Positions 904-43,944 of a stretch of DNA of 44,471 nucleotides are shown here, one piece after another. The notes under the pieces are model-generated. The model did not search any database. It worked only from the letters and a program-made list of their open reading frames with translations, and was not told the DNA's origin. The translations under genes and the position numbers were made by a program. Location of the stretch: the NCBI GenBank assembly GCA_011053135.1, contig DRLG01000303.1, forward strand, positions 1-44,471. The letters run 5' to 3'. The first letter of the stretch is position 1. Each line of letters begins with the position of its first letter. Source of the stretch: Chromatiales bacterium. GTDB taxonomy: Bacteria > Pseudomonadota > Gammaproteobacteria > SZUA-140.

Positions 904-1191
904 TTAGCTGATCAAAACAAGTCGTTTATGCTGCTCAAGAAAACGGTCTCGCTCTGTCTGATCGATAAGCGCATCAGTTTTGTCAGGGATGATGGTTCTT
1001 GAAATCTGGATGCCAACATTACAGGTTTTGCACCAGACGATTTTCCAGCCGAACTCAGAATCTTCAAAACCGAAGTACTGATAATCGAGTCCTGTTGCCC
1101 CACAACAGAGACATGTGCACGTTGCCAGGTCATCATCATTAATCGGCAGGTGCTTTATCCAGTCAAGATAACTGTGCGTTGTCACATTCAT
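904..1191 (-). CDS. Small Cys-rich (zinc-ribbon-like) protein; candidate immunity or accessory partner of the upstream giant toxin
   Basis: 95-aa ORF. Its ATG (1191-1189) overlaps the TGA (1190-1188) of the 3199-aa gene as ATGA, indicating translational coupling. Cys clusters CTCLCCG and WCKTCN lie about 24 residues apart. No family recognised. Confidence 0.55.
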   Translation of the reverse strand: MNVTTHSYLDWIKHLPINDDDLATCTCLCCGATGLDYQYFGFEDSEFGWKIVWCKTCNVGIQISRTIIPDKTDALIDQTERDRFLEQHKRLVLIS

Positions 1192-4100: not shown

Positions 4101-7100
4101 TCGGTACAGCGCCATCTGCTGTGCGAGAGGTAGCTCATCCCAGCGCTGTAAATCGCTTTCACGGAGTGCGCCGAGGCGCTCGCTCCAGCGAGGGTCTTTG
4201 CTCTGCAGGGCGTGAATCCCTTCCTCACGTAACACACGCGGACTAGCCCCTTCACGCATCACAATGACCGGTTCACCCTGCAGGATTAATGTCACCGCAT
4301 TGCCACTGGACGAGCGGGTAAAAGCTTCAAAGTCACCGGGGCGCATCACCAGTATTGGCACGTCTGAAAGTTGGGCGCGTTGCTCAGCAGGCACTGCCGC
4401 AAGCATCTCACGACGCATCTGTGCCGATTCATCATCTGTGGGACGAATCGGCGCACCCTGCTGTACCGCTTCATCAATGGCGCGACAAAACGTATCAAGA
4501 TCAAGGTCGGGGTTCTCACGCAGCGCTGCCTCTTCCAGCCGCACGCGTTCACCGGGCGAGATGGTTCCTTCCATCTGACGCAGATGCAGATCGACCAATG
4601 AAGCCTCCGGCAACACCGACAGTGTACCGCGCAGATGCTCCGGCACATTACTCATCTGCTGCTGACGTTTATGCCGCGCCTGATCTCGCGCCACTGCATG
4701 TTCCGTTTTTACTTTAGCCACTGCGGAGGCGAGCATGCCATCAAACTGGGCACGTGTGAGTTCCGGGTTACGTTGCTGCGCTTCGCGGAACAGTGCCTCC
4801 TGCTCATGTGCAGTGCCCATTGATTCCCGGTCGAGTAGCTTCTTTATCTGCTTGAGCGATTCAGCAGGTAGACCGGCAAAGACCTTACGACCATCTGGCG
4901 ACAGTGCCGCCATCACTTCACTATGGCGCTGTTGCGTCTGAATCTTTTTAAGTGCCTGGGCCTGATGAGAGGTTGCCGTTGCATCGGCCAGGCTGCGTAA
5001 AAAGGCGAATTCGCTAAGCTCCGGTTTCTCAAGTCTGGCCTGACGGAACAGTGCATCAGCCGTAGCGGAGTCAAACTCACCTCGCGCAATCATTTCACTG
5101 GCGCGACGTAGATCGGCTTCGGTCAGATATTCCATCCCTTCAATACGGACGTCATCCATGACATTACGTAATTCAGGATCCATTCCGGCAGCGAGCTGCT
5201 GGCGAATGCGCGCCTGTTGCGCCGTGTCGGGCGCATCGGCTTCATCGGCAGGATGTAAACTGGCAATCGCCGCTTCCATTTCACGCATCAGTGCGCGGCC
5301 ATCCAGGTCGGGCACGCTATCGTTCAGGTCACGCAGGAATTTACTACGATCGCCCTGGCTGCCCAGGTCACCGGCATCGATCATGCTTACTATATTTCGT
5401 AGCGTGTTGAGGTCATAACTCGACGCCTGCTCACGCAGACCTTGTGGCAGGCGGACGAGTAGTTCACGGCCAGCATCGATCTCGGCGCGAATTTTCTCTG
5501 GCCCATCATCATAGTTCATCACACCGGCCGAGATCGCAGCAAGACGCAGTGCGCGCTGGTCTGACGGACTCATCGGTTCACCGCTACGGGCAACGTCTAA
5601 CAACTGTCGGTAACGCGCCTTATTCTGGCTGGTGGCCCCTGCGCGCAGTGTGCCGGAGACCATATCGCGCAGCCCCGCCTGTCCGATCTGTTTCAATGCG
5701 TCGCCAAATTTTCCTTCAAACTTTCCGGTGGCGTAGTCGGTGATGACACCCGCGGTTTCACCGACGGCTGAACCGAACAGTTCAGCGATACTTTCCTGAA
5801 AGATTTCACTACCGTTGGGGCCGAGCGCGCTGCCGAGTTTCTGCATGCGGCTGAAGTCGCTCGGACCGAGATCACCGGGGCTCATCGAACGGCCAAGCTT
5901 GCTGGTGAGTCCTTCGGATACGCCCGCCGTTACGGCTGCTACCGCCGCACCTTTCACCGCTCCATTGAGCACCCGTTCGAGGCCACGATCCAGCCCGTCC
6001 TGCCACACTTCATCCTGCAGTGCGATCTGAGCACCGCTGCTAATTGCACTCACGAAGGCTTCACGCGCCACCGCTGAACCGATCGAACCGAGGCTCCCTT
6101 TTAATGCCTCGCCAATCCCCGCGAGTGCGCCTGACTTACCCAGTCCGCCACCCAATGCGCCCCCGAATCCTGCTGTAGCCGCTTCAATCGCAGTCGTTGC
6201 AACATCGGTGGCCGCCTCTTCCCAGCCGTAACGTTCACCACGCATCCCCGCCTTCACTGCAATGGTGGCGGCTCCGGCGATTACAGCGGTAATAATCCCG
6301 GCCGCGACGATATTGACACCGGGAATCAACATCAATGCCACCGAAGCCACCAGTGCCAGTACGGTAATACCGGTGGTAAGCATTTTTTCCTGGCGGTCGA
6401 TTTCATTACGATAGGATTCGGCAGCGAGGCTGACGCTCTGGGTGTAGTGCTGAAGCTGCGACGTATTACCTAAAAAGCTACCATCTGTACTAAAGGCCAG
6501 TGCCTGAACGACAGGGTCGATAGAGCCGTCAGGGTTAAAAATAGCACCGGGGTTTCGCTCATATGCAGCAATAGCATCGGGGTTTCCCTGACGCGCCGCT
6601 TCGGCGCGGGCGGCATCAAGAATGGTCTGTGCCAGACGATCTCGTCGGCCATCCAGGTTCTGTTGCTCTGGCGTACCGCGCATACTGCTACGCGCGAGGA
6701 AACCAGCACCACGCACCCGCTCCTGGTTGTAATGCAAACCGGCATACTGCACATGGTCAAGATCTGTTTCGCGGTTACCGCGGGAAAGGCGCTCCAGTTC
6801 AAAAGCCAGATCGCCCGATACCTCCGGGGAACGTGTCGCAAACCAGGCGAGAGGACTGAGCGCCATTAGCCCATAATCGCTGGCACCCCAACTGCGGCGC
6901 TGAATCCCCAGCATCTCCTCCATGTTTTCACCGCCATTTTCCACTGCCCACTGTGCATTGGCGGCATCAATCTCCGCACGCGAGCGATCGCCATAGGCGC
7001 GACGCAACAAAGCCTCATGGGTGCCGGCACCTTCGGTAGCGAGTTGCACGCTCGCCACCAGACTGGCGCGACCACTGGTGATCATCTCCTGACCATAACG

Positions 7101-10100
7101 TGCATGGCTTGGGCGATTCCCCACATAATCATCTTCCCGCGCGAACAGACCACCAACCTGGTCAGCCATCCAGCGCTCCGCCGCAGCGGGATCGGGATCA
7201 TTCGCTATCTCCTTCGGCGCACCCAGACGTCGCGCCATCATCTGCATACGCACACGATGCTTGCCACGTTCCTCGTCTAAAAGGCGCTGATAACGCGAGC
7301 GTTCCCGAGGGTTTCGCGCTTCGCGTACCTGACGCTCAAGCGTCGCGAGCTGTCGATTTTCAAACGCATCACTGAGACGGGTTTGCGAGGTTTCCGAAAG
7401 GTCATCAAAAATCCCGAGGGTGCTGTCACCCTGTGCACGACGGAATTCAAATACACCACGCGAGGCGCGTGCTTCATTGCTTTCAGGGCCATACCTGACA
7501 AGGTCTCTAATGTACTGGCTGGCATCATCAGACATCTCAACCCGTTCGATACGTGCACTGCCCCACCCCTGTATGGCGGATAGATGTGGCGATGTCGCAT
7601 AGCGCGTCATCGCGGCCTGTGCATCCTCGGGCGAAAATGCACTCGCCGCACGACGGCGCGGATCGGTTAACGAGGCAAACTCACTCTGCACCCGCTGGGT
7701 GCTGCGGTCGATCACCTCGCGCGGGAGATAAGCCGATTCAACCGCTAGTTCCTGCTGCAACACGCCGCGCATATTCGCCATCACAGTAACGCGGGCTTCG
7801 TCCGAACGGCGCTGGGCAGACTGAGCACTGAAGATCCAGCCCCACTCACCCTGACCGCGAGCCTTATCGAGCGATTCACGAGTGCGTGCAGCGACGGCAC
7901 GTTCACGGTTACGATCCAGGTATGCAGTCGCAATCGCGCCCTGATGTTCGTTTAATCCGCTGATCAGATTGGTGCGTGTAGTTTCAATAAGCCGAGGATT
8001 AAAAGCTGCAACGGCATCACGTTCGGCCTGGCTTAGTCCCTGCAGTGCGGATTCACGTGCGGCGCGATTATAATCGAACCATCCAGTGGAGTAATTGGCT
8101 ATTGACATACGGGCATAGCCACGCACCCGCGCACTGGTACTCAGTAGATTCAGCGCATGCCATTTTTCCGGGCTACCCAGTTCTGAGCGAATCCGTGGGC
8201 GCAGCAGACTGGGACTGGGGTAGATTGTGTTGAACACATCTTCCAGTCCAAGCACCCCAGGCCACATCAGGTTACCCAGTTTCTCGATAACGACATTTTC
8301 ATCGCCATCGCTACAATAGAGATAGACGCCGGCCGCAATCGGACTTAACAGTGCAAGCCCGCCGGCAGTAGCCAGTGATTGCCCCGGCATCGCATTGTCG
8401 ATCGCCGAAGCGCGGCGTTCGAGATCTGCACGGCTATCCATCATCGGTTTGGTCAGCGAACCTTTGTCACCGACTTTTTCCATCTCTTTGACAAAATTTT
8501 CCAGCGCGCCATACTGGCTTTGTGCGGCAGCGCTGATTGCACCATTTAAAAAACCGACCGCGATCGCATCGACCTGTTGTAGCCCTTCATCGTCCAGTTT
8601 ATCTCTAGACTCGATAATCCCCTCCGCCATTCTTGTCGCGTATTCCTGCGCTGCGGTAATCCCCTGGATGGCACCTGCACTCATTTCGCCGGTCATCTGC
8701 GAGGAGAACATCGACATATCGAAGCTGGTGCGTGTGACCACATCCTCCATACTGTTGACGCTGTCGCGCCCGGCCTTACTAATGGAGTTGATCTGATCGC
8801 GTTTGATCTTATCCATTTTTTCCAGCGTCATATCGGCCTGCTGCTGCGCCGCTTTTTCATGCTGCTGTTGCAGTTTAAAGGCGCTATCGCGTGCGACGAT
8901 CAGTTTGGGAAGGAGATTACGGGAGTCAAGAAATTGTTCTGCTGGCAGCAGCGCATCCAGACGGCGTACCAGGTCACGATAGGCTTCGGCCATTTGTGCT
9001 GCGGAATTGTTTAACGCGGTTTCCGCCGAACTCGCCTGCGACCGTAACCCCTGTGCGGTCTTATTGCCACTCTTGCGAATATTTTTAGTGAGGGTATTGC
9101 GCATATCAAGGTCGGCGTACTCTTTCGCCAGCTTACCCTTGTTCTGAATTATGCGACGTGCACTACGCACCGCCGCCTCTGTTTCTGTCAGCTGTTGGTC
9201 GCTTTTATTGCTGACCTCATCAACTGACTGACTCTCATCCTGTTCATGATGTTGCGATACCGGTGTCGTTAATGACAGCACCAGTGTTGTAAACTGGGCC
9301 TTGTTTGCATCTGAAGAAAGGCGCGTGGCATGTTCACCCGCATTTGTGACGAGTCTTGTCTGCTCCTGTCCAGCCATTCCCTCCAGCACGGGTGAAGCAC
9401 GTGACAGGAGATAGGTTTTAACATTACTGCTTTTCTCGGAAATAATCCCCGACTGTATATCCATAAAGTGGGTTAATCTCTTCTCGGCTTTCGACATTAC
9501 ACGATAGGATGGAGTCGACTCCTGGTTGCCACTCTGTGCAGCTGCGCCACTCTCGCCTCCACCAGCAGGCTGCTCACTGTTCTGGTTGCCACCGCCGGCT
9601 GTGCTCTGAGGGTTAGGGGGCTGAGGTAACTGCGCAGCAATGCCGGATGTAGGGATATCATTAATATAGCCAGCCGCCTGCGGGATTTTTTCATTAAAGC
9701 GCGCCTCTGCTATTTCGGCTGCCTGTCGAATCTCCTCTGACCCTTCCATGAGATTCGCGGTGATCTCCAGCATAATGCGATCACGGCTTGCCTGCAGTTC
9801 TTCGCCAGTTTTTATATTTTGTTCGGTAATGTGCGCCTGCTCTTTGGCCAATGAAAGGTCGATATCGCGCATCGATTGATCCACTGCATCATTAATCTGT
9901 TTAACCGCTGCTGCTGTGACACCCTGTACTTCGACCGCCATCTCCTCGATCGAAATCCGTGTGTTCATACCGAGGTTACCGATATTAAAAAGCATGCGGC
10001 GTTGAGCATCGCGCGCCGCCTGCGCAGTGCGCTGCGCACTCTGTCGCACCAGTGCATGGTGATATTCCGGTGGTGATCCGGTGCGCTTGAGAATTTCATC

Positions 10101-26593: not shown

Positions 26594-28264
26594 CTAGCTT
26601 CCTTTATTTATTTTGGGGAAGGGAATGCAGCTCTTCACCCATGGCAACCAGAAAAAAATAATATTTAATAACGAAATCATGATCATCAACAGAATCATCG
26701 CCACCAAAGTGATGACAGGCAGACTAAACGAACAGACCCACTGAATACCTAAACCCGGCCCTGGTTCACTATCAGGAAGCACGCCCTCTCCAGCACCTTT
26801 TTTTAACTTCAGATTATTGATCAGATTAAACGTATCAGGCGGGGTGATAAAACTCGCCCCCTTCGCCATGCCACGTTTTAAATCTGACAGTGATGGCATC
26901 TGTATCAGTGATGGGCGGCTGGCTTCAGGATCAAACGGGGCGGCGACGCGAAACAGGATGCTGCGATTGGTATTTTCTACCCACTGAATCTGCTCTTTAC
27001 CCTGATCATTTAACGAGCGGACAAACGGAATTATTTGATAGGTATCTTCGCTGTCCTGGGTGAACTTTGGTAGCGGAATCTCCTGCACTTTAGCCAGCGC
27101 CTGCTCTCGCAGTCGCTGCCCCAGTAGTTCACGAATATCCTCGGCGTCAGATTCGCTGATAAAGAGTGTCCAGTTTAAATTCTTCTTTCCCGAGCTAGCA
27201 GGTAGCACACTAAAACTGGATAGCTTATCAATACCCCCGGCTTTATCAATGGCGGCCTCCTGCTCAATAATCCAGCGTACTAACGGGTTCTCACCCCTTT
27301 GAGCAAAACAGCCGCGTAGATATGACCACACCGATGATTTTCGATAGGCAGTGAAAAGCATACGGCTGGATTCACGATAACCTGTTTTCTTAAGCTGGGC
27401 AGAAAAAGCATTCTCATCATAGAACCATAGCTGGTCCATTTTCTTCGCTAACGCGCTATTACTTTCAATCGCCTCATCACCGAGGTGGTAACGATTGACC
27501 AGCAGGCGCAATAATTCGAAAAATGGCTGATCAGGCTTACCTGCGTTCACCGGGCGTGCAATAGTATCGTTCCAGGCTCTTTTGAATGGTTTACGGTAGC
27601 CAAAAGGCCACGAGAGTGATTGCGCATCAGCATCAACCACCGCTTTTTGCGACAACGCATCAAATGCCACACCTGTATCACGGTGATAATAAAAGCCACC
27701 CAGAGGCACGTAACCAAAAAGCAGGGTATGACGTTTACCCGTTTCATCACGGGCATCCAGTGTATGCAGAGGAAATACCTCCTCACCACTATATATTGGC
27801 TGGATTGTCCGCTTTTGCAACACGCCATTTGCACACAGGCGACGATGGATATCAGGATCGCGTAACTCAGTCGGCGCGGGTTGCCAGCCCAGCGCTTCTC
27901 CATCTTCGAGCTGCCATGCATACTCTTGCTTTCCATTGATGCGACGAATCACAAAACCCGCCGATGTGATACGCTGTGGATCCAGCGCCGGTTTTCCCAG
28001 CTGGTCACAAACCACTTCGCAGCAAACCAGGTGGAATGCGCGATGCAATGGCAACCGCAACACCGGTTTGTTATCGTACGGGCTATGCTTATCCTCCTGC
28101 ATCCAGCTGGAAAACTGCGGCAAGGTAAATCGCTGCTGTTGCATATCCTGTTGAAAACGATTAATAAACTCTGCGTCAAGATAGCGATGTATGGCAGCAT
28201 CAGGACCGTCATGATAAAACGGCGGCTTAATGCTAATGGCGTGTAATGAGTGGTTTATATTCAT
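26594..28264 (-). CDS. Hypothetical 556-aa protein with a C-terminal hydrophobic anchor, in the slot usually held by PAAR
   Basis: Long ORF between the spike and gp25 genes. The C-terminus FSLPVITLVAMILLMIMISLLNIIFFWLPWV (about 26640-26740) is a ~31-residue hydrophobic segment ending 16 aa from the end. No PAAR motif and no recognised family. Confidence 0.75.
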   Translation of the reverse strand: MNINHSLHAISIKPPFYHDGPDAAIHRYLDAEFINRFQQDMQQQRFTLPQFSSWMQEDKHSPYDNKPVLRLPLHRAFHLVCCEVVCDQLGKPALDPQRITSAGFVIRRINGKQEYAWQLEDGEALGWQPAPTELRDPDIHRRLCANGVLQKRTIQPIYSGEEVFPLHTLDARDETGKRHTLLFGYVPLGGFYYHRDTGVAFDALSQKAVVDADAQSLSWPFGYRKPFKRAWNDTIARPVNAGKPDQPFFELLRLLVNRYHLGDEAIESNSALAKKMDQLWFYDENAFSAQLKKTGYRESSRMLFTAYRKSSVWSYLRGCFAQRGENPLVRWIIEQEAAIDKAGGIDKLSSFSVLPASSGKKNLNWTLFISESDAEDIRELLGQRLREQALAKVQEIPLPKFTQDSEDTYQIIPFVRSLNDQGKEQIQWVENTNRSILFRVAAPFDPEASRPSLIQMPSLSDLKRGMAKGASFITPPDTFNLINNLKLKKGAGEGVLPDSEPGPGLGIQWVCSFSLPVITLVAMILLMIMISLLNIIFFWLPWVKSCIPFPKINKGS

Positions 28265-28272
28265 CGCGCCGC

Positions 28273-28923
28273 CTACCAGATGTTACCCGCACCAGGGGTG
28301 TAAGTTGTCCCTACCACCGAGGTCGCAATGATGGTATCGGCCTGTACTACCCCACTGAATTTTGACATCGCTGCATCCACTTGCACCATCGCAGCAGAAA
28401 CATTAACCGTTGAGCTATTAATATTGACTGGCCCGCTGCTATCGATGTTGATTTCCGTGGGAGTGAGTTTAATGCTTTGCGCACCACGCTCAATGGTGAT
28501 CTCGCCTCCACTGCTTTCATTAATATGAATACGATAACCGGATTGTGTTCGCATCTCTACTTTAGGACCATCACTATCATCAAACTCCACCACCGTTCCC
28601 GCTGGAGTGCGTACCACATAATGATCCTCGTGCGGAGTGGCATCTTCAGGTACGCTGCTTTGTCCGGCCCAGACACTGCCGAGCACCAGTGGTAACTCTG
28701 GCGTGACAAATGCGAGTACTACAATTTCATCAAGGCGGGGAATAAAACTAACGCCGTAACCTTGCCCTGCTGAGGGAGCGGCCACACTAGCCCAGAGCTC
28801 CATCGGCATTGATTGTAGGCGAACTTTGATGCGCCCACGGCCATCTGGATCGACATTATCGACGACCTGTGCCAGCTGTAAACTTTGTAACTGTCCTGGT
28901 GCATGATGGTTCATACTTGCCAA
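28273..28923 (-). CDS. Central spike protein, phage baseplate assembly protein V / gp5 OB-fold (Afp8 C-terminal equivalent)
   Basis: AQVVDNVDPDGRGRIKVRL...GYGVSFIPRLDEIVVLAF...PLVLGSVW is the gpV/VgrG OB-fold signature, with a beta-helix-like C-terminus. The probable start is ATG 28914, forming ATGA with the gpD-like stop; the track start is TTG. Confidence 0.8.
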   Translation of the reverse strand: MASMNHHAPGQLQSLQLAQVVDNVDPDGRGRIKVRLQSMPMELWASVAAPSAGQGYGVSFIPRLDEIVVLAFVTPELPLVLGSVWAGQSSVPEDATPHEDHYVVRTPAGTVVEFDDSDGPKVEMRTQSGYRIHINESSGGEITIERGAQSIKLTPTEINIDSSGPVNINSSTVNVSAAMVQVDAAMSKFSGVVQADTIIATSVVGTTYTPGAGNIW

Positions 28924-29957
28924 TCTGCCTTATTCACTTTTAAATGCGTCTCAAAGCCTGAATTGTTATCAAACTGGTGCACACAGTGGACGATTTGATA
29001 CTTTCCACTTAACCGTGGCGAAACACCACCCAGATCAATTTCGCGGCCACTTTTCAGACTCGCTTCACCCTGACAAACGATATCACCCTGAATAAAACGT
29101 TTCGCCTGACGACGATAATGCGCCTTGGCATACGCCTGCGCTTCAGCACTGGAGCGAGCGAAAGGCTGCGGCATCACTTCATCTCCTGGCCAGCTCAGAT
29201 CATTCAAGGTGATACGTGCTGTGGTGGCATCTGGCGCGGGCATCATTGACGCTGAGGTGTGATTCACCTCAACAGCATCAGCCATGTTGTAACCCTGTAC
29301 TGTTGAGTTTAACCATTGATGATTCAGGTCAACCAGCAATCTAACCCTTAAAGCACTATCCTGAGCATCGAGCTCCAGTACATCACTATCTGCCTGTTCC
29401 GGTTTAGCGCGCAATTGATTACCATCCAGACGCAATGCAATATCAAACCGGCTTAAGAGTCGCTGCATAAACGCAAGGTCACTTTCATTCAGTTGGTGCC
29501 ATGTTGAAACTAAATTTGAGACGCTAACGTCAGCACTCAGCCCTGCGTCACTGGCGATGGTACGCACCACATCATCTGGACTTTGATCTTCAAAACTTCG
29601 ACTGTTTCGTGAACGCGCGAGTCGATGCAGTTTATCCTGCAACAGCAGCGCTAAAAATGGGGCACCCTCCCCATAACGCTCTTCAATCGCAGTGATCTCA
29701 CCGACAAAAATAGTCACAGGATTATCTTCTCCCATTAATAACTCGCATTCGCTGCCTAGCCCGATGCTATTAAAGATAAAATCTGGCTCTTCTTCACCCT
29801 CAGGCCGGCCCCAGTTTGTTAGATGCAACTCAGCGTGACCGCAACCATGCAGTGGCAGATTAACCACCATGGCTGTCAAAGCCTCCTGTACATCTTCACG
29901 CTCATTACCATCCACTTTTACAGAGGGTCGGCTACTAACAAATGCTGCTTCGGTCAT
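28911..29957 (-). CDS. Phage late control gene D-like baseplate hub (gp27/VgrG N-terminal equivalent)
   Basis: 348 aa, directly upstream of and overlapping the gpV gene. The N-terminus (SRPSVKVDGNEREDVQEALTAMVVN...AELHLTNW) resembles the start of gpD family proteins. A split gpD + gpV arrangement is common in tail-like systems. Confidence 0.6.
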   Translation of the reverse strand: MTEAAFVSSRPSVKVDGNEREDVQEALTAMVVNLPLHGCGHAELHLTNWGRPEGEEEPDFIFNSIGLGSECELLMGEDNPVTIFVGEITAIEERYGEGAPFLALLLQDKLHRLARSRNSRSFEDQSPDDVVRTIASDAGLSADVSVSNLVSTWHQLNESDLAFMQRLLSRFDIALRLDGNQLRAKPEQADSDVLELDAQDSALRVRLLVDLNHQWLNSTVQGYNMADAVEVNHTSASMMPAPDATTARITLNDLSWPGDEVMPQPFARSSAEAQAYAKAHYRRQAKRFIQGDIVCQGEASLKSGREIDLGGVSPRLSGKYQIVHCVHQFDNNSGFETHLKVNKADWQV

Positions 29958-29981
29958 AAGCTAAAACAGTGCCTCACTTTA

Positions 29982-30149
29982 TTAATCGAACTTCAGGCGA
30001 TCTTGTCGCTGCTGAATTAATGCCAGTGTTTGCGCCAGCGCGGACTCAGCTTCAGCCAGCGGCAGTTGCAGCGGCGCCGGCTCTGACTCAGCGAACTCAG
30101 TGACGCCACTTTCAACTTCTGCAATAACTTCGTTAATCAGTACAGGCAT
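29982..30149 (-). CDS. Small 55-aa ORF (Afp6/Pvc6-sized) not present in the supplied ORF track
   Basis: Translated by hand on the minus strand: MPVLINEVIAEVESGVTEFAESEPAPLQLPLAEAESALAQTLALIQQRQDRLKFD, then TAA at 29982-29984. It fills the only gap between the tube-initiator and gpD-like genes. Purine-rich AGAGAGG lies upstream of the ATG. Confidence 0.4.
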   Translation of the reverse strand: MPVLINEVIAEVESGVTEFAESEPAPLQLPLAEAESALAQTLALIQQRQDRLKFD

Positions 30150-30169
30150 ATGCGCCTCTCTTGTTATAT

Positions 30170-31285
30170 TTAATCAAAACCAACACTCGCTTTCGCGTTG
30201 AGATTAATCTTCCCGCTACCCGTCTGATCCATCGACAACTGACTTTTTAATTTCAGCGGCGAAACACTACTCTCATTACGCAGTAGTAGACTGCCATTCG
30301 CAATGCTACTGGCGGTTAAACCCACGCCAGCGGGGCCAGTGCTAAATGCACCCTCTATTCCAGTACCCAAACTGCCGGAAGCACCAAATTTAAAGGCAGG
30401 TGGTGTAAAGCTTGCACTTATACTCGGCTGGACCAAGGCACCCATGCCGACTGAGGCTGACAGTGAAGATGAGACATCCGCTGTTGCTGAGAATCCACCG
30501 CTGAGGCCAGCATTCACTTTAACCGAGGCACTGGCAGACACTTTGGGAATAGCAAGCATGGCGGCTGAGGGTAAACGCGGGTTTTCTACGCCGTTATACA
30601 TAGAGGTGTCACGCCAGTTACCTCTCTTGTCACCACTACCACCGGGTACTGGCGAAGTCTCCTGGCTAGACTTGCTCCCACCACCCTTGTTACTGCTGTT
30701 GTTTCCCGTAGAGCTGAGCGTCGGTGTTTCCCGTGTCGCCTTTGCAACCGTTCGATTACGAAACTGGTAACGGTCTTCACTCAGTTTTAGCGATACAGTT
30801 GCGCGTAACGGATGACCTTCGGGCGAAAAAAAATCCAGCGTCTCATCAAAGCTTTCAACTAACCCAAGAAATTCAAATGCGCCCCATTGAAAAAGGCAAC
30901 GACTCGGGGCTTTGAGCCGATTACCAGAGGGAACCGGTTTAATAAACTTATCGCCAATACGTTTTGTTATCAGACGGACGTCCGTACCTACTTCAAATGC
31001 ATTCCGTTCACGCCCTTCATTTTGCGCCCTTTTTTTATACTTTTTTGCAGCTTCATCATCAATGTAAGTCGTATCGAAAATCAATTCTACGGTTAAGCTG
31101 GATGAACTTTTATCAACAAATTGTGATGAGCGACTGTTACCAGCGCGCTGATTTTCCTTCAGCGTGTTGGACAGGCTAACTTTTAGCGTGGTGGGGTTAA
31201 ACTGTACATCAACAGCCTTCGACAAGTCAGGGTTGTCATTATTCCCACTAACAGGAATGAGCTTGGCTCGTTCAGGATTAATCAT
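30170..31285 (-). CDS. CIS tube-initiator-like protein (Afp7 N-terminal type) with a Ser/Gly-rich C-terminus instead of LysM
   Basis: N-terminus ERAKLIPV...AVDVQFNPTTLKVSLSN...SSLTVELIFDTTYID...GTDVRLITKRI fits the FNP-motif tube-like domain seen at the N-terminus of Afp7/LysM proteins. The C-terminal ~170 aa are S/G/A-rich with no LysM signature. Confidence 0.6.
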   Translation of the reverse strand: MINPERAKLIPVSGNNDNPDLSKAVDVQFNPTTLKVSLSNTLKENQRAGNSRSSQFVDKSSSSLTVELIFDTTYIDDEAAKKYKKRAQNEGRERNAFEVGTDVRLITKRIGDKFIKPVPSGNRLKAPSRCLFQWGAFEFLGLVESFDETLDFFSPEGHPLRATVSLKLSEDRYQFRNRTVAKATRETPTLSSTGNNSSNKGGGSKSSQETSPVPGGSGDKRGNWRDTSMYNGVENPRLPSAAMLAIPKVSASASVKVNAGLSGGFSATADVSSSLSASVGMGALVQPSISASFTPPAFKFGASGSLGTGIEGAFSTGPAGVGLTASSIANGSLLLRNESSVSPLKLKSQLSMDQTGSGKINLNAKASVGFD

Positions 31286-31296
31286 CTCTCACCTCA

Positions 31297-31797
31297 TCAT
31301 CTTTTTACTGGTCGCTCTAACTCAAGCCCTTCATGCACCAGATGTAACTCTTCAATGGCCACTTGATTAGCGGTGGATGATAAATCTGGGCCTTTAAATT
31401 TTGTCGGTAATACCCCAAAGAGTTTCCACACCATAACGGGGTTCTCAGAACTTGACTGGACCCCGTGTTTACCCTTTGTCACCGAGCTATCTGGGTTCCC
31501 AAGCACGACAATTTCACCACTTAAGCGATAAGCATAATTTGATTCACGTGTCGTAATATCGAACCAGGACCACAGGTCATTCATTGTCGTCACGCCGCGC
31601 TTTAATATGATTGGCGCAAATTTCGTGGTACCACTGCGCTGAATCTCACCCCAGTTACGCCCCCCTTCGACAATCACTTTGGGTTCCATGGTTAACTCAA
31701 AACCGGTGACCTCGCTAAAATAACCACCACATAGCAGCTGGCTACGGTCGCCACTAAATAGACTGACTTTGAAACGAAACGGGACAAACTCAGACAT
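31297..31797 (-). CDS. Tail tube protein 2 (T4 gp19 family, Afp5-like)
   Basis: FRFKVSLF...GGYFSEVTGFELTMEPKVIVEGGRN...APIILKRGV is the gp19/tube signature. GGAGGTG lies 4 nt upstream of the ATG. Confidence 0.8.
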   Translation of the reverse strand: MSEFVPFRFKVSLFSGDRSQLLCGGYFSEVTGFELTMEPKVIVEGGRNWGEIQRSGTTKFAPIILKRGVTTMNDLWSWFDITTRESNYAYRLSGEIVVLGNPDSSVTKGKHGVQSSSENPVMVWKLFGVLPTKFKGPDLSSTANQVAIEELHLVHEGLELERPVKR

Positions 31798-33277
31798 TTT
31801 TCACCTCCGCCTGCCACTCCCCATTTTGATTGGCGAAGGTAAGGTAGAGCCGATCAATTGGAAACGCAGGTGCGACCATAATTTCAAACAGCATCGCACC
31901 GGGCTGAGGCTGAGATTCGGTAATCACATAGGCATCATCAGGTAATGCGCCGCGCAAAGCACCTTGCTTATGCAACCGACGAAAAAAATCATGCAGCATT
32001 AAGCGCGGGCGTGGATCACGGTAATCGACGTTAAAAACCAGTACTTCACCCAATGTTCGTAGCTGACGACGCAAAAAACCGAGAAAGCGCATCACTTCAG
32101 CCGAACGAAATCCATTGTAGCGATCTATATCACGTCTCTCTTTGTAGTCTGCAGGTGGCAAAGCAGGGACTACCAGGCGCTCGTCATCCAGGCTCACTTT
32201 ACCTGAACGTATTTGCACCATGCCAATACCAGGTTGTTCACGCAGGTGTAATGATTGTGCGAGCGGCGTTACTGGATAAGGCACAGCGTCTGTAACCATT
32301 GTGCGTGCCGCCATCGAGTGCCACGGCCCTTTTTCCCACGCCACCGCGGCTTGTTGCCCGGCGACGAGTCCGACCGGACTACGCAACAAAAAACGAGGGC
32401 CGCGTAAGTAAGGGTACAGAAACTGAATATGACGTAGTGTATGGCCACTACTACCATCTCTAAGATTTTCCACCGTCAATATTGCCGCAGGGTCAATAAC
32501 CGGACTGCCTTGTTCGCCGGAATAACTCAGCGGAAGACTAAACAGACATTGCATATCTGGACGGTAACGAACGATAGCGCGTAAAATTCCCTTCAGTAGT
32601 TCTGCACTCGGTCTCGGCTGCGGCATAGCTGGCAGTTCGGTCGGGTATCGACGTTCCCGGTGATCATCATCCAGATCCTGACTACACGGCATAAAACGCG
32701 GATCAGGGTTTTCCAGGCGAACACGAGGAATATCACTCATACGCGGCGGAATCTGCAAACGTTCCAGATCGGGCATGGTCACCACCGCAACACTTGGGAT
32801 AACCAGAATACAAGCCAGCCCCCGCAGGGTTTCAGTATCATGAATCACCGTATTATCAGCAGGTAAAAATGCCGCTTGTAGCTCCGCTTCAGGAATTTGC
32901 ACTAACCAGAGCTTTTCGCCACCATTAGCAAAAAAATCATCTACCGACTGCGCTAGCCAGGCCTGCGCGCCAGCGAGCAAACTGACATACTCTGTTTTTG
33001 CGACTGCAGCATCTGGGAAAATATCGTGAAACTCAGCGCTGGAATAGAGCGGGATTGGCAAGTGGTATAGCTGACTCAATGTGCCGTTAATCAGCGCATC
33101 AACGGCAACACCAAAACCCACTGAACGTATCTCATCCAGAGCACCTGGTAAGGCAAGCAGGCGCTCTACCCGTACCCGCCCGGGGCAATGCCCTAGCATG
33201 GCAACTTCGAGTGCAGCCTCACGCCGACGTAATGGGCGTGGCGTTAAGGCGATGCGCGATCCAGCAAGCAGCTCCAT
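31790..33277 (-). CDS. Divergent second sheath-family protein (Afp3/4-like), lacking the canonical N-terminal PGVY motif
   Basis: VDDFFANGGEKLWLVQI parallels AAKSFFDGGGKQLFVSRV in the 725-aa sheath. SPVGLVAGQQAAVAWEKGPWHSMAA parallels PPSGFIAGVYANTDVQRGVHKPPAN. Confidence 0.55.
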   Translation of the reverse strand: MELLAGSRIALTPRPLRRREAALEVAMLGHCPGRVRVERLLALPGALDEIRSVGFGVAVDALINGTLSQLYHLPIPLYSSAEFHDIFPDAAVAKTEYVSLLAGAQAWLAQSVDDFFANGGEKLWLVQIPEAELQAAFLPADNTVIHDTETLRGLACILVIPSVAVVTMPDLERLQIPPRMSDIPRVRLENPDPRFMPCSQDLDDDHRERRYPTELPAMPQPRPSAELLKGILRAIVRYRPDMQCLFSLPLSYSGEQGSPVIDPAAILTVENLRDGSSGHTLRHIQFLYPYLRGPRFLLRSPVGLVAGQQAAVAWEKGPWHSMAARTMVTDAVPYPVTPLAQSLHLREQPGIGMVQIRSGKVSLDDERLVVPALPPADYKERRDIDRYNGFRSAEVMRFLGFLRRQLRTLGEVLVFNVDYRDPRPRLMLHDFFRRLHKQGALRGALPDDAYVITESQPQPGAMLFEIMVAPAFPIDRLYLTFANQNGEWQAEVKNV

Positions 33278-33289
33278 CAGTGACGACTC

Positions 33290-33751
33290 TTAACTCTGCT
33301 CGATATGTTCAACCGATAATACGAGCTCTTCCATCGCAACATCACTGCCTCCCTTGGCGGTGAGTGTCGGGCCAGTCCATTTGATCGGCATCGCGTTAAT
33401 CAATTTCCATGTCACAACCGCAGAAGGATCGGTGGCGTTTTCCCGTTTGAGCTTAACTTCAACATTACGCTTTGCGGTCACATCACCCTCACGGATTTGA
33501 TCTAACCAGTTGTAAATATTTTCAGCACCGATCACGCCACGTTTAAGTGTGACATCTCCCGCCTTACTTACTGCTGGGATTTTAGTTACATAATTTGCCG
33601 GCGCATTTCCATTACGGTATTCCGCGATAGTAATTTCAGCGTTCAATCCGGAGACCTCAGAAAACCCACCCTGTACTTCACCTTCACTACCATCACCAAG
33701 ATTGACTAGATAATTAAAAACGCTATAGGGTGTTTCTCGAAATTCAGCCAT
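33290..33751 (-). CDS. Tail tube protein 1 (T4 gp19 family, Afp1-like)
   Basis: 153 aa. FNYLVNLGDG...GGFSEVSGLNAEITIAEYRNGN...VTLKRGV is the gp19-type tube signature. It lies immediately downstream of the sheath gene. Confidence 0.85.
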   Translation of the reverse strand: MAEFRETPYSVFNYLVNLGDGSEGEVQGGFSEVSGLNAEITIAEYRNGNAPANYVTKIPAVSKAGDVTLKRGVIGAENIYNWLDQIREGDVTAKRNVEVKLKRENATDPSAVVTWKLINAMPIKWTGPTLTAKGGSDVAMEELVLSVEHIEQS

Positions 33752-33785
33752 GTTTAATTCCTCCTGAAAAGATCACTAACAACGT

Positions 33786-35963
33786 TTAACTATCTGCGGT
33801 TTTCTGGCCAATACGGAAAATAACAAACTCCGCCGGTTTCAATGCAGCCACACCAACTTCACACACCAGACGGCCATTGTCTAAATCATTTTGTGTCATG
33901 GTACTGCGGTCGCAACGAACAAAATATGCAGTTTTTGCCGAACCCAGCAAGCGTCCGTTGAACCATTCGTTATAAAGAAAGTCTTCAACTGTGGTTTTCA
34001 CATTGGCCCACAATCGCTCACCATTGGGTTCAAATACGATCCACTGCGTGGATTTCTCGATCGATCGCTCCAGGTACAAAAAGTAACGCCGAACATTGAC
34101 ATATTTCCATTCAGGGTCACTCGCCAGGGTGCGACCACCCCAAACACGATGTCCACGACCAGGGAATGAGCGCAGGCAATTTATGCCGTTAGGGTTTAAC
34201 AACTCCTGTTGAAAACGATTAATATCCTGTGCAAATCGCAGCGCACCGATAACAGGTTCGTTAGCAGGTGGTTTATGGACGCCGCGTTGCACATCGGTAT
34301 TGGCGTAAACACCCGCAATGAATCCCGACGGTGGTGCTGTGATAGTGTCGTTGATACCACGCGGATCACTAATCACCACCCAGGGGTAGTACAGGGCCAG
34401 GCGGGAGTCGTCAAAGTTAGATCGGAATTCACGAATTTCTGATAACGACATGCTTTCTCGTGAATCCACTATACCGACACGGTAACGCATCTTACGGCAA
34501 TGTTTCTGCATTTCTGCCACAATTGCCTGGTGATTTGCGACATCGGCAGCCGCTGCAGGTGTCATAACAATTGAAATGTCGTCAATGTCTTCCAGGGCAG
34601 CAAAACCGGTACTACCATTGACTTCGTCAGTTACACCGCCGTAATGGATGGCTGCCGGCACATTACCATCACTACCGCCAGTCAGGCTAATAAGATAGCG
34701 TGGGCCATCGACTGAAATACCAACGGGGTTCAGTGCCTCGCTGTCAAACATATTATACAGTGCGGCGACCACTTGCTCGCCCGTCACGCCATTCGCAAGG
34801 GTACAACTGACTGGACTGGAGAGTTGATCACTGCGTTTATCGGGCACAGCGGCCATGACGTTATGCAAGCTGTTATCTGCATCGGGCGCTGACGATATAT
34901 TACCGTAGCTGTACACAATCGACCCACTACTGCCCCCTGAGCGCACAGAGATATCAAAATTTCTTTGTATCATCATCGCGCGCACATTGCTCGGTGCAGC
35001 GGCAAGTGCTGCGAGTGAAAAAGTAGCCGGTAAGACAATGCCAGCATTGAGGCCGCTACCATCCAGCGTAAACTCGGTACCAGCTTCATTCAAGGTACCG
35101 CGAAGCGTTGTTAACGTGCCCCAGTCAACACCGGTATAAGCACTCAGGTCGGTAACGCTCGTGAGACTGAGCAACGCCGATGTACCATCGGCCAATGCAC
35201 CACTGGTGGGCCGTTTAGCAGTGACCTGTGTGTACTTAATCGTGGTACTGACACCCGCGACCAGACCTGCGCTCATCAGCACCCCATCATCGCCATCTGC
35301 CGCACCGTCAAGACGCAGCTGGGTGCCCGTGAGTACAACATCATCGTCCGTGGTTATTTCACAGAGATTATCGACGATGACGAAATGATCCCCTTCACGA
35401 CGAACCACCGCTTTAATATCAATTGGGAAACGACTATCAGGCGCCCGAATATCAATATCAGCGGTGCGCACAGCATTGCTCAACCCAGTGGCCTCCAGAA
35501 AGATGACTTCGCCTTCGGCTGGCACAGAAGTTTCCACTGACTTCAATAAATTTTCGCTGTCTCGCCAGTCAAGCTCCAGCGTGTAGTCACCCATAACTCC
35601 GGGAAAGCGACTATTAAACGTAACCCTGTTATTGATGTCAGCGATACTGGAATAACCATCTGTGGGACTGACGTAGTTTGCTACGCGTGACACAAAAAGC
35701 TGCTTACCACCCCCATCGAAAAAAGATTTTGCTGCGATTGCCGTATGATTCAGTACGCTCGTACCAGCCAGAGTAAGATTATTAATATCGCCAAAAATAC
35801 GGGTAAATTCCGCAAAACTGGTCACCACTTCGGGTTTTCCTCGAAGCGGCCCGAAACGTGTTGGACCGACAATTGCAGCGACACTGGTTCCGACGCCTTC
35901 AATTGATTTGGCGCGAAAGCTCACTTCCTCCACAAACACACCCGGTGCTAAATATTCAGGCAT
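33786..35963 (-). CDS. Contractile tail sheath protein (Afp2-like)
   Basis: 725 aa. N-terminus MPEYLAPGVFVEEVSF, internal PPSGFIAGVYANTDVQRGVHKPPAN, and C-terminal NGINCLRSFPGRGHRVWGGRTL are the three classic sheath motifs. Confidence 0.9.
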   Translation of the reverse strand: MPEYLAPGVFVEEVSFRAKSIEGVGTSVAAIVGPTRFGPLRGKPEVVTSFAEFTRIFGDINNLTLAGTSVLNHTAIAAKSFFDGGGKQLFVSRVANYVSPTDGYSSIADINNRVTFNSRFPGVMGDYTLELDWRDSENLLKSVETSVPAEGEVIFLEATGLSNAVRTADIDIRAPDSRFPIDIKAVVRREGDHFVIVDNLCEITTDDDVVLTGTQLRLDGAADGDDGVLMSAGLVAGVSTTIKYTQVTAKRPTSGALADGTSALLSLTSVTDLSAYTGVDWGTLTTLRGTLNEAGTEFTLDGSGLNAGIVLPATFSLAALAAAPSNVRAMMIQRNFDISVRSGGSSGSIVYSYGNISSAPDADNSLHNVMAAVPDKRSDQLSSPVSCTLANGVTGEQVVAALYNMFDSEALNPVGISVDGPRYLISLTGGSDGNVPAAIHYGGVTDEVNGSTGFAALEDIDDISIVMTPAAAADVANHQAIVAEMQKHCRKMRYRVGIVDSRESMSLSEIREFRSNFDDSRLALYYPWVVISDPRGINDTITAPPSGFIAGVYANTDVQRGVHKPPANEPVIGALRFAQDINRFQQELLNPNGINCLRSFPGRGHRVWGGRTLASDPEWKYVNVRRYFLYLERSIEKSTQWIVFEPNGERLWANVKTTVEDFLYNEWFNGRLLGSAKTAYFVRCDRSTMTQNDLDNGRLVCEVGVAALKPAEFVIFRIGQKTADS

Positions 35964-35985
35964 AGTCTTCTCCTTTCAGTTTTTC

Positions 35986-36765
35986 TCAACTAGGTTGCAC
36001 AGCTAAATGATCCTTATTCATTGATCGGATCAGTTTAATCTCACCGGGTACGACTGTTAAACCGATGGGGTTAGAAAAAGTGTTATCGTTATCGAGCTCT
36101 CCAAGCTTCATCGACAACAAGTCAGCAGGATCAAGCGGCGTGTCCGCATCTGCTGTACTGAGTGCCGCAACACGAAGTTCAGCATTGTAAAAATCAACTC
36201 CTTCCGGTAATGGCGGCAAGCGAGTCATGGACAAACCAAAATCACCCTTTGCATCTGCCTGAGCACGAAACGTTAACGTGCCGCTGAGCCCAGTGGCAAC
36301 CTCGAGTGTCAACAATGCCCAGGGCACTGAGTTGCTATTAGTAGAAAACCGCAGCGTGCCAGTAAGACCACCACTGACACCAAAACGGGTACCATACGGC
36401 GATGGATAAAGCTCTACAACCTGCCGCCCAAGGTTACCGGCTGTAAGGCTAAACGTGCGTGGGTTGTAACGCCCATTAAGATCCAGCACGCTACCCGCTA
36501 ACGGATAAGTAGCGCTTACAGGAAATGCCAAATCAGCTTCACTTGCAATACCGTTAATCATTGACTCAGTGGGACGCCGCCATAAAGCTGTCTTTCCAGC
36601 AGTATGCATAAGTTGCAAATTAGTAGGGCGCACTGAAAGTGAAAGTTCAATAGCATAGGGCAGACGCATCATATCTACCTGGTTCTCAGCACTGGTTCCG
36701 TCCAGCCAGTAGATCACATCACTTGCGTGTAGAATGTTGGTTTCAAGTATCTTTAGCGTGTTCAC
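35986..36765 (-). CDS. Hypothetical 259-aa protein between terminator and sheath (possible prealbumin/CarboxypepD_reg-like beta-sandwich)
   Basis: GTG start forms GTGA with the upstream stop. GTLRFSTNSNSVPWALLTLEVATGLSGTLTFRAQADAKGDFGLSMTRLPP loosely fits the G.v.d..g.P...A.v.l......tD..G.F.l..lp pattern. Weak assignment. Confidence 0.55.
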   Translation of the reverse strand: MNTLKILETNILHASDVIYWLDGTSAENQVDMMRLPYAIELSLSVRPTNLQLMHTAGKTALWRRPTESMINGIASEADLAFPVSATYPLAGSVLDLNGRYNPRTFSLTAGNLGRQVVELYPSPYGTRFGVSGGLTGTLRFSTNSNSVPWALLTLEVATGLSGTLTFRAQADAKGDFGLSMTRLPPLPEGVDFYNAELRVAALSTADADTPLDPADLLSMKLGELDNDNTFSNPIGLTVVPGEIKLIRSMNKDHLAVQPS

Positions 36766-37349
36766 AACGCGCCCCCAGGGAACACGCGTGTCACTACCGC
36801 TGGCCCCTCAGTACGCTGAGGATTCAGACGTAAGCGAATGGTACGCGCAACATACGGCACTGAACTCGTATAGGGTGATTCAAACACTTCCCAGATGCGC
36901 ATTAAATCTTCCGTAGACATCTCATCCGGAGTGATGTTTAGAACTTCTGTTTGGCCCCATTCATCATCGATATCCAGCACATGGGATACATCAAGCTGAC
37001 TAGCATTGGCAAGCTCAACCATTGCCCAGCTCATTAAATCTGCTTCGATGGTGGCACTATTCGCATTAGCGATCAGCAGGAAATGAAGATTAACCGGGAG
37101 CTCTGGATGACGACCATTTTCACTGGCACCCTGCTGAGGGAAAAAGCGTGCGCGGCCATGGGGATCAATAGTCATGCGATGCAAATATATACCAAGTATA
37201 TTTCCATTGAGCTTACTGGCAATATCCGAACTACCAAGTAGCTTTGCTTGCGCATTGGTTGGTTCGTTACTGAGGTCTGTTGGCAAGCGGCGTTTAAAAA
37301 ACTCCTCTAATGCCAACAATGCTCCTTGCACTCCCTTATACGAGGCCAC
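36762..37349 (-). CDS. DUF4255 tail terminator/cap protein (Afp16/Pvc16/Cis16-like); first gene of the operon
   Basis: 195 aa. ILGIYLHRMTIDPHGR...LPVNLHFLLIANA...EADLMSWAMVEL fits the DUF4255 pattern (l.lyLyrv..n...rn...ppl.L.LhYLlta....e..lL..am..l). GTG start at 37349 is preceded by AGGAGG with a 4-nt spacer. Confidence 0.65.
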   Translation of the reverse strand: MASYKGVQGALLALEEFFKRRLPTDLSNEPTNAQAKLLGSSDIASKLNGNILGIYLHRMTIDPHGRARFFPQQGASENGRHPELPVNLHFLLIANANSATIEADLMSWAMVELANASQLDVSHVLDIDDEWGQTEVLNITPDEMSTEDLMRIWEVFESPYTSSVPYVARTIRLRLNPQRTEGPAVVTRVFPGGAL

Positions 37350-38140
37350 ACTACCTCCTATGCCGGCTTCATTTTACTTTCTAAATAACCAAGTACAGCG
37401 CAACTCTACAATGCATTTTACTAATGAAATAAATTCTTTGCTGGCGTGCTAAAAAATAAACCCCAATAACACACAAAAATATTTATGCACCGAATTACTA
37501 GGTTATTTATAGCTCTAAAACTTTTTTATACTCTCCCTTCCACATTGAATCTAAACTATGAAAAAATTCTTTGCAAGCGATTTCACCTCACAACCACCTC
37601 AGTAAAGGTGCAATTATTATCCAAGTATTTTTCTGCCAGCGCATACTATAAAAATGCTACGACGACGGCTAAACTGCGTTAACTTATTTGAGTTATTTAT
37701 CCCTGCTAGAAAGGAAAACGAGCGTTATAGAATTAATCAGCCTTAATCAATGAAACGCAATTGTTGTACTTTTAACATCGCGTAATGATGCATGAAGAAA
37801 CAATGAATGTAGACAATAAACCCGCTGAGACAAGCTTTAATAGCACAGAAATTTCGACTGTTAATTTTCTCTGTTCGTAAAACTTAAATGTATATTGAAC
37901 GTAAAGGAATGCAGCCACCCATCATCGAACCATGTCCATTATTCACCATAATCATCATTTCATTCACCTCGCCTCTAAGTACCCCCTTATTAATTGCCTT
38001 GTCTGTCATGACGAGCAAATCGTAATGGGCTGGAAATCCAGCTCCTTCAGGGCGGGTTAGATGAACCATTGAGTTGAGCGATTACTTCGTTACTTCACTC
38101 CTCTTTATGACAATCAATCAGAGGTTTCCACGCTATTTTC

Positions 38141-38210
38141 TGGCTCCCATGCTCCTGCGTGTAACCCCATATCATCAGTATGCGTTCCCACGGGGAACCG
38201 TGGGAACAAG
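38141..38210. repeat. REP-like double-hairpin intergenic repeat, copy A (downstream of cusF)
   Basis: Shares the cores CCATATCATC[A/G]GTATG[C/T]GTTCCC and CCGTGGGAAC with copy B. Contains a perfect 10-bp stem GTTCCCACGG / CCGTGGGAAC (38184-38207) with loop GGAA. On the transcribed (minus) strand no U-tract follows it. Confidence 0.6.
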
Positions 38211-38569: not shown

Positions 38570-38595
38570 TGTTTTATTCCTCTTTGTTTTATTTC

Positions 38596-38663
38596 TGGTT
38601 CCCTCGCTCCAGCGAGGGAACCCATATCATCGGTATGTGTTCCCCGGAGGTCCGTGGGAACGA
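38596..38663. repeat. REP-like double-hairpin intergenic repeat, copy B (between cusA and cusF)
   Basis: Perfect 12-bp stem GGTTCCCTCGCT / AGCGAGGGAACC (38596-38621). Then the shared core CCATATCATCGGTATGTGTTCCC, and a bulged second hairpin ending CCGTGGGAAC (38638-38660). Confidence 0.6.
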
Positions 38664-38674
38664 GCGTAAAGGCG

Positions 38675-43868: not shown

Positions 43869-43944
43869 GGCTCTATGCTAACCCGCGCAAGTCGCTCAAA
43901 CAACGCCTGATCGGGGTGATTTCAATCGAATTCATTCCCGGTAT

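Follow-up and report, generated by a model that had tools for sequence, protein, structure and literature searches.

The window analyzed here is a 44.5-kb contig from a metagenome-assembled genome of Chromatiales, and all positions are given in the numbering of this window. It contains the locus of a contractile injection system (CIS), in which an open reading frame (ORF) of 556 amino acids is located between the gene of the gp5-like spike protein (Phage_base_V, 28273-28923; gpV) on the upstream side and that of the gp25-like sheath initiator (GPW_gp25, 26198-26590; gp25) on the downstream side. This is the location given in a preliminary description of this DNA. The 556-residue protein, which is identical to ENJ13_10380, matched no Pfam, NCBIfam or PHROG family. 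It is composed of a large globular part, a conserved low-confidence segment, a long hydrophobic helix and a short basic tail (Table 1).

Position and conservation of the gene

The stop codon of gpV lies 8 nt before the ATG of the 556-residue ORF, and no clear ribosome-binding site is visible there. At the other end, the GTG start of gp25 is 3 nt past the stop codon of the ORF, and the AGGA ribosome-binding site of gp25 is within the last codons (K-G-S) of the ORF. The 8-nt spacing, together with the location of the gp25 site inside the preceding ORF, points to translational coupling along gpV, the 556-residue ORF and gp25. The gpV gene and the ORF were in the same reading frame in just 18 loci.

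Homologs of the protein were found in at least 486 species-representative genomes. They formed at least 273 clusters at 90% identity among the candidates scored; at 50% identity, 1137 representatives were obtained with E-values of 1e-3 or below, 658 of them with 1e-10 or below. The carriers include Methylomonas, Hahella, Marinobacter, Thalassolituus, Cellvibrio, Thauera, Aromatoleum, Azoarcus, Hydrogenophaga and Methylococcus, as well as Desulfobulbales, Holophagaceae, Planctomycetota, Myxococcus stipitatus, Polyangia, Blastocatellia and Leptolyngbya. All of these named carriers are two-membraned. The family members are all annotated as "hypothetical".

The string of gpD, gpV, the homolog of the 556-residue ORF, gp25, Baseplate_J, the P2_I-like gene and the first two Cis13-type genes was found in all of the 80 genome loci. 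The same string was observed, wherever the flank suffices, in 80 metagenome loci from a distant clade, whose proteins are approximately 25% identical to the window protein. In the loci fetched via gpV from IMG/VR (n = 25), the next gene always belonged to the family. Thus, the survey of homologs next to gpV and gp25 genes that the preliminary description had recommended found the family at this position throughout, in about 180 loci with enough flank from the genome, metagenome and IMG/VR sets. These loci are from Proteobacteria, Desulfobacterota, Acidobacteriota, Myxococcota, Cyanobacteria and Planctomycetota. Cargo genes vary in presence or position and are usually located downstream of the ATPase gene, which is not the case for the 556-residue ORF. 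Since its position between gpV and gp25 is fixed in all loci with enough flank, the gene is, judging from gene order, part of the structural core of the subtype and not variable cargo. In other words, the protein is a stoichiometric, core, spike-adjacent subunit.

Globular domain and C-terminal helix

The structure of the protein was modelled with AlphaFold2 (AF2) from 82 diverse sequences. The mean predicted local distance difference test (pLDDT) value was 87.9 and the predicted template modelling score was 0.77; the prediction, also recommended in the preliminary description, is thus a confident one. The model consists of a β-rich part (residues 1-200), a helical part (200-395), a β hairpin (408-440), a low-confidence stretch (approximately 446-514) and a helix (515-542). 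A Foldseek search of this model against the PDB and BFVD gave nothing at E ≤ 1e-3, the best template modelling (TM) scores being about 0.1, and the family profile found no match among the PDB sequences. None of the PAAR, gp5.4, TssK, TssL or lysozyme-like domains was detected in the protein. The modelled fold seems to be novel, or at least unmatched.

In the globular part, H8, H74, C86, R107, W127 and E161 are conserved. Five of these (H8, H74, C86, R107 and E161), all in the N-terminal β-rich region, are invariant or nearly invariant in the whole family and could form a putative metal or catalytic site. The segment of residues 446-510 shows top-residue frequencies of 0.45-0.53 despite its low pLDDT values. 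Since it is conserved and yet modelled with low confidence, this segment is expected to bind a partner, and probably becomes ordered only in the partner-bound state.

The hydrophobic segment FSLPVITLVAMILLMIMISLLNIIFFWLPWV corresponds to residues 513-543. Its Kyte-Doolittle maximum over 19 residues (KD19) is 2.87, at residue 520, whereas the rest of the protein reaches at most 1.24; this means that there is no signal peptide. Among the structural genes of the locus, only the 556-residue ORF encodes a strong membrane-type segment. The tail after the helix is 13 residues long (KSCIPFPKINKGS). The preliminary description had reported a hydrophobic segment of about 31 residues located 16 residues from the C-terminus: the length was correct, and the distance should be corrected to 13 residues. 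A single helix within about 30 residues of the C-terminus, in a protein lacking an N-terminal signal peptide, is the arrangement of a tail anchor.

The helix is retained in 250 of the 254 family members having 300 or more residues, and the four exceptions look truncated or frameshifted. The median uncharged run across the family is 31 residues. The mean top-residue frequency in the helix is 0.71, compared with 0.29-0.48 elsewhere in the protein. Among 237 sequences, F513, P516 and W539 are invariant, and T519, A522, L526, L533, N534, F537, P548 and P550 are nearly invariant. The conservation has a periodicity of approximately 105 degrees, which means that one face of the helix is conserved, as expected when helices pack against each other. 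Conserved cysteines (C511 and C546) flank the helix, and aromatic residues are found at both of its ends (W509; W539/W542). Because it is the most conserved region of the protein, the helix is, as far as conservation tells, more than a passive greasy anchor. A helical hairpin, in which the 31-residue segment would re-enter the same side and bring C511 and C546 together, was also considered. However, the helix in the AF2 model is uninterrupted and its midpoint lacks a turn motif.

The 15 residues before the helix have a net charge of -0.8 and the tail of about 13 residues one of +2.5; the tail is more positive than the N-terminal flank in 92% of the 237 members. It should be mentioned that two distant IMG/VR members (L181:6590-8317 and L185:6638-8317) retain the helix but extend about 100 residues beyond it. 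In these members, Pfam gave no domain match. Since there is protein on both sides of the helix, these variants seem to be bitopic, which fits a true span of the bilayer.

Split spike, lack of PAAR and the remainder of the locus

The gpV protein aligns to residues 374-570 of the AlgoCIS VgrG, and to only the C-terminal half of full-length VgrG proteins, containing the oligonucleotide/oligosaccharide-binding (OB) domain and the β-helix. This means that the spike is split over two genes, the other half being the gp27/gpD-like protein. Within gpV, conservation is highest at the very C-terminus (...FSG.V......VV...YTPGAGNIW). The last nine residues are a candidate docking site, as suggested by their invariance; to our knowledge, no function has been described for this motif.

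No PAAR match was found by Pfam in the 556-residue protein (E ≤ 0.01) or in 26 other long ORFs, nor at E ≤ 0.1 in 125 further ORFs of 62 or more amino acids in six frames; these scans cover the 44.5-kb window, the rest of the genome lying outside it. The small conical β fold of about 100 residues that characterizes PAAR proteins was not detected in the protein by Foldseek against the PDB and BFVD. The PDB presumably contains PAAR-type tip structures. The gap between gp25 and Baseplate_J is just 27 nt, so that nothing is hidden there. A PAAR domain concealed in a small ORF or inside the 556-residue protein was therefore ruled out by the Pfam scans, the six-frame ORFs and Foldseek. In this respect the preliminary description, which had stated that neither the protein nor the locus contains PAAR and had named such a concealed domain as a finding that would overturn its view, was right.

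Two of its other statements should be revised. It took the position between the spike and gp25 genes to be the PAAR slot. In the antifeeding prophage (AFP), the order is spike (afp8), gp25 (afp9) and PAAR (afp10) (Chen et al. Table 1, PMC6899500), so that the canonical slot falls after gp25. It also treated the lack of PAAR as a peculiarity of this locus; however, this lack is a published hallmark of subtype IIb of the extracellular CISs (eCISs). According to Chen et al. 2019 (PMC6899500), the hallmarks of subtype IIb are the absence of afp10 (PAAR), the splitting of afp8 into gp27 and gp5, and a single afp11, along with divergent afp12/13 and an afp6 homolog.

The window shows those concerning afp10, afp8, afp11 and afp12/13. 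There is no afp10 (PAAR); afp8 is represented by Phage_GPD (348 aa) and Phage_base_V (216 aa); and there are one Baseplate_J, one Tail_P2_I-like protein and three ORFs having the N-terminus of the Cis13 family. The candidate for afp6 is a 55-residue ORF at the right position, with no family or PDB match, that is kept in the closer loci. The locus thus matches eCIS subtype IIb by gene content, this assignment being made from its hallmarks. The closest solved relatives are of lineage II (IId of Streptomyces, and haloarchaeal). The sheath is closest to those of the Streptomyces CIS (8BKY, 8BL4) and the Halogeometricum CIS (9EZM), with E-values of about 1e-95, which far outrank the matches to Afp, the Photorhabdus virulence cassette (PVC), the thylakoid-anchored CIS (tCIS) and AlgoCIS. 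In the PDB search, the Streptomyces coelicolor baseplate protein (9GTP) was the sole solved relative matched by Baseplate_J. For gp25, the best solved match was the putative tail lysozyme 2IA7 (E = 1e-13), followed by chain V of 9GTP (7e-13).

Subtype IIb has been described before, including that it lacks PAAR, that its spike is split and that it has subtype-specific genes without names. Chen et al. 2019 (PMC6899500) noted two or three such genes without known domains, and asked whether these make up for the missing afp genes. The present locus resembles their description in having both the IIb hallmarks and conserved genes of no known domain, whereas the paper describes neither sequence features nor a fold, membrane helix or function of those genes. 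What is new is the unannotated family with a near-invariant C-terminal membrane helix, a novel fold and a fixed spike-side position; no description of the family, its helix or this position was found in the literature searched. Neither the literature searched nor the PDB sequences yielded experimental work on any IIb system, and no literature on the organisms carrying this locus was found. A link to SalCIS and its membrane hydrolase SalCis19 was ruled out, as SalCIS belongs to clade Ib and has a PAAR-like Cis10.

The genes of the locus are in the following order on the minus strand: the Pvc16_N cap, a 259-residue unknown protein, sheath, tube, a sheath-like protein, tube, CIS_tube, the 55-residue ORF, gpD, gpV, the 556-residue ORF, gp25, Baseplate_J, the P2_I-like protein, three proteins with the Cis13-type N-terminus, a 550-residue unknown protein, an AAA ATPase, a 317-residue unknown protein, a 3199-residue cargo candidate and a 95-residue ORF. 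The three consecutive Cis13-type ORFs each start with a module of about 70 residues matching the N-terminus of the NCBIfam CIS13 family, which implies three different fibre-like proteins on one baseplate. None of the three has a membrane helix.

The 495-residue ORF between the two tube genes encodes a second, divergent sheath-like protein; its match to the PHROG tail sheath is weak, and in distant loci the ORF at the same position is recognized as a sheath. The 3199-residue ORF, which lies downstream of the AAA ATPase and may encode a giant cargo protein, had no Pfam match. Its N-terminus is strongly acidic, a hydrophobic block occurs at about residue 1476 (KD19 of 2.43) and an HExxH motif (HERTH) is found near the C-terminus; its position corresponds to that of Afp18 in AFP. 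The 95-residue Cys-rich ORF after it resembles a zinc ribbon.

One edge of the CIS island carries a tRNA-Leu(CAG) gene and the other an AT-rich gap, beyond which lie copper-efflux genes (CusF, a CusA-like resistance-nodulation-division pump and CusB) and a MerR regulator. This layout of tRNA edge, AT-rich gap and flanking copper-efflux genes suggests that the island was horizontally acquired.

Table 1. Features of the window and of the 556-residue ORF, in window numbering
Feature	Position	Strand	Remarks
Whole contractile injection locus	904..37349	-	all genes from about 900 to 37349 on this strand
556-residue ORF	26594..28264	-	ATG start; subject protein; subtype-specific core gene
Residues 1-445	26930..28264	-	confidently modelled globular part; AF2 pLDDT mostly >90
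Residues 446-510	26735..26929	-	conserved low-confidence segment; pLDDT 53-70; FDPEASRPSLIQMPSL.DLKRG.AKG...TP.DTF
Residues 513-543	26636..26728	-	31-residue uncharged hydrophobic helix; most conserved family region
Residues 544-556	26597..26635	-	short basic tail K/R-x-C-L-P-F-P-K
Ribosome-binding site of gp25	26590-26605	-	AGGA
gp25-like sheath initiator (GPW_gp25)	26198..26590	-	130 aa; GTG start
gp5/gpV-like spike half (Phage_base_V)	28273..28923	-	216 aa; OB domain and β-helix
Spike C-terminal motif YTPGAGNIW	28276..28302	-	last nine residues of gpV; invariant in about 155 loci
gp27/gpD-like spike half (Phage_GPD)	28911..29957	-	348 aa
55-residue ORF	29982..30149	-	afp6/Cis6 position; kept in closer loci; no family or PDB match
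Sheath-like ORF	31790-33277	-	495 aa
Baseplate_J (afp11-like), single gene	23996..26170	-	closest solved relative: S. coelicolor CIS baseplate protein, 9GTP
Cis13-type ORF	20642-21529	-	295 aa; NF053767 match
Cis13-type ORF	18945-20639	-	564 aa; NF053767 match
Cis13-type ORF	15384-18923	-	1179 aa; NF053767 match
Cargo candidate	1188-10787	-	3199 aa
Cys-rich ORF	904-1191	-	95 aa
tRNA-Leu(CAG)	33-119	+	edge of the CIS island
AT-rich gap	37350-38200		GC 0.40
Copper-efflux genes and MerR regulator	38219-44361		

Possible function of the 556-residue protein

The best explanation, to which we assign a probability of roughly 0.45, is that the protein tethers the spike or baseplate to a membrane of the producer cell. 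In this model, it would be made by translation coupled to that of the upstream gp5-like spike protein, with gp25 coupled in turn to the 556-residue ORF. The N-terminal domain of about 450 residues and the segment of residues 446-510 would bind the central baseplate or the blunt end of the spike, YTPGAGNIW. The 31-residue helix would use its invariant face to assemble a homo-oligomeric bundle, probably a trimer or hexamer, spanning a bilayer, which is most probably the cytoplasmic membrane of the producer. The baseplate would thereby be held spike-first at the membrane before firing, in a mode like that of a type VI secretion system (T6SS) or the tCIS, and contraction would drive the spike and the 556-residue protein through the membrane.

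Several observations favour this model. A helix this hydrophobic enters the membrane of the producer by default, and its KD19 value is too high for an exposed helix of a soluble protein. That some variants have protein on either side of the helix indicates that it truly spans a bilayer, and the invariant face of the helix suggests a defined homo-oligomeric bundle. The invariance of the spike C-terminus is consistent with a conserved partner and so lends support. In addition, the sole characterized lineage-II systems, those of Streptomyces and haloarchaea, act inside the cell at the membrane.

A precedent for anchoring of a CIS subunit by a long C-terminal triple helix is Cis13 of the tCIS from Anabaena (Weiss et al. 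2022, PMC8894136). Its N-terminus binds the baseplate. The helix at its C-terminus has a predicted length of 33 residues and assembles into a triple helix, which penetrates a membrane and positions the particle (PMC8894136). The 556-residue protein likewise is a CIS component with a C-terminal membrane helix, one face of which is invariant. However, Cis13 is a peripheral tail-fibre homolog, whereas the 556-residue gene is spike-adjacent and encodes a helix with far stronger conservation. The two proteins resemble each other in neither sequence nor fold. The N-terminal baseplate-binding module of Cis13 (NF053767) is absent from the 556-residue protein and is present in the three other ORFs.

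Membrane proteins are also conserved with the lineage-II CIS clusters: CisA (SCO4242) of Streptomyces and the haloarchaeal Hbor_38620 are needed or proposed for membrane contact and firing. The bitopic CisA combines a disordered N-terminus with a periplasmic domain resembling substrate-binding proteins, and Hbor_38620 has six membrane helices. In contrast to the 556-residue gene, the genes of these two proteins lie outside the core operon or at its edge. Homology to either was ruled out, as the architectures differ, the profile search of PDB sequences was empty and there was no Pfam match. TssL of the T6SS is C-tail-anchored, with a large cytoplasmic N-terminal domain and one C-terminal membrane helix, and links the machine to the inner membrane. 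However, it has no sequence or fold similarity to the 556-residue protein, and its partners TssJ and TssM are absent from the locus.

Several points weigh against a producer-membrane tether. Binding of the protein to any part of the CIS is something we infer. The three fibre-like proteins, the AAA ATPase and the 3199-residue cargo candidate resemble those of a released eCIS. The known CIS anchors are peripheral and poorly conserved, whereas this gene is spike-adjacent and encodes a nearly invariant helix. A 61-kDa protein placed between the spike tip and the membrane might hinder puncture. Finally, the acidic flank before the helix and the basic tail after it are the reverse of the positive-inside arrangement for an N-in/C-out protein, although this is weak evidence; basic residues are present at the end of some bona fide tail-anchored proteins of bacteria. 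The membrane anchor proposed in the preliminary description thus stays the best reading, with the closest solved relatives acting at the membrane, whereas the charges do not clearly support a classical N-in/C-out tail anchor.

A more far-reaching form of the tether model may be entertained with considerable doubt. Subtype IIb might represent a new class of cell-anchored contractile weapon, neither released nor a T6SS, which would be docked centrally via its spike by the helix bundle of the 556-residue protein in place of PAAR and a TssJLM-type complex. Such a weapon would then occur in double-membraned Gamma-, Beta- and Alphaproteobacteria, Desulfobacterota, Myxococcota, Acidobacteriota, Cyanobacteria and Planctomycetota.

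A different role, which seems rather unlikely on balance, is that of a substitute for the spike tip. One or three copies would cap the gp5-like β-helix in place of PAAR, and the helix, shielded in the baseplate or in a self-bundle until firing, would insert from outside into the energized membrane of the target. A pore might thus be formed or seeded, or the tube fixed in the target membrane. PAAR is absent from the locus and the subtype, the gene is adjacent and coupled to that of the spike, whose end is invariant, and the fibre-like proteins, like the giant cargo candidate, are compatible with a released particle. Like PAAR, Afp10 or gp5.4, the protein is encoded beside the spike and gp25, and a blunt gp5-like β-helix would normally be capped; the conserved His and Cys residues in the N-terminal domain are a further similarity. 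The charges flanking the helix obey the positive-inside rule only for entry from outside (N-out/C-in), and its invariant face fits a defined oligomeric pore as well as a bundle. However, the protein is about five times larger than these tip proteins and contains a membrane helix while showing neither the motif nor the fold of PAAR; Foldseek against the PDB and BFVD revealed no PAAR-like, gp5.4-like or pore-former fold. A globular domain of 450 residues would blunt the tip instead of sharpening it. No shielding partner was identified among the ORFs of the locus: the unknown ORFs of 259, 317, 550, 55 and 95 residues gave no informative family match as a chaperone or partner of the helix. A helix with a KD value of 2.87 would default to the producer's own membrane, and the characterized lineage-II relatives are not released.

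The same conservation can be explained, with less plausibility, without any bilayer. The helix might be buried in protein, for example within a bundle of the central hub or cage; alternatively, the protein might be a scaffold of the hub that is missing from the mature particle. The strict core status of the gene and the strongest conservation being at residues 400-556 are as expected for a segment locked in a conserved core, and the conserved, low-confidence segment of residues 446-510 suggests a stretch wrapping around partners. Such an internal role is nevertheless distinctly unlikely. The helix has the hydrophobicity and length typical of helices embedded in lipid and carries aromatic residues at either end, the additional 100 residues or so after the helix in the two variants would be hard to fit in a closed cavity, and we know of no comparable buried helix in the solved CIS baseplates.

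A holin-like or membrane-disrupting factor that frees the particles from the producer, acting outside the machine, is improbable: a single conserved membrane helix with an oligomerization face would suit it and no lysis cassette was seen in the window, but 556 residues far exceed the size of a holin, the coupled position between the spike and gp25 is typical of stoichiometric structural subunits, and the large conserved N-terminal domain would be left unexplained. A toxin mounted on the spike as variable cargo, the effector of the preliminary description, is highly improbable despite the adjoining spike gene and a C-terminus that looks membrane-active, since the same family occupies the same position in about 180 loci across the groups named above, strictly syntenic down to approximately 25% identity, whereas cargo genes differ between loci, no immunity gene is adjacent, and the obvious cargo candidate is the 3199-residue ORF downstream of the ATPase.

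The 556-residue protein is the obvious candidate for what compensates for the loss of PAAR in subtype IIb, as asked by Chen et al. 2019. Its near-invariant helix provides a sharp handle for testing both the replacement of PAAR and whether these systems are released or anchored. In either outcome, the family deserves a name and a profile model; it is a marker of no fewer than 486 species genomes, with over 1100 clusters at the 50% identity level. If the protein is carried on the spike into the membrane of the target, it would amount to a novel type of spike tip, possibly useful for engineered delivery particles. If, as we favour, it tethers the spike to the membrane of the producer, a large group of systems now labelled "extracellular" would need reclassification as membrane-docked, and the protein would represent a minimal, one-protein coupling of a phage-tail machine to a membrane.

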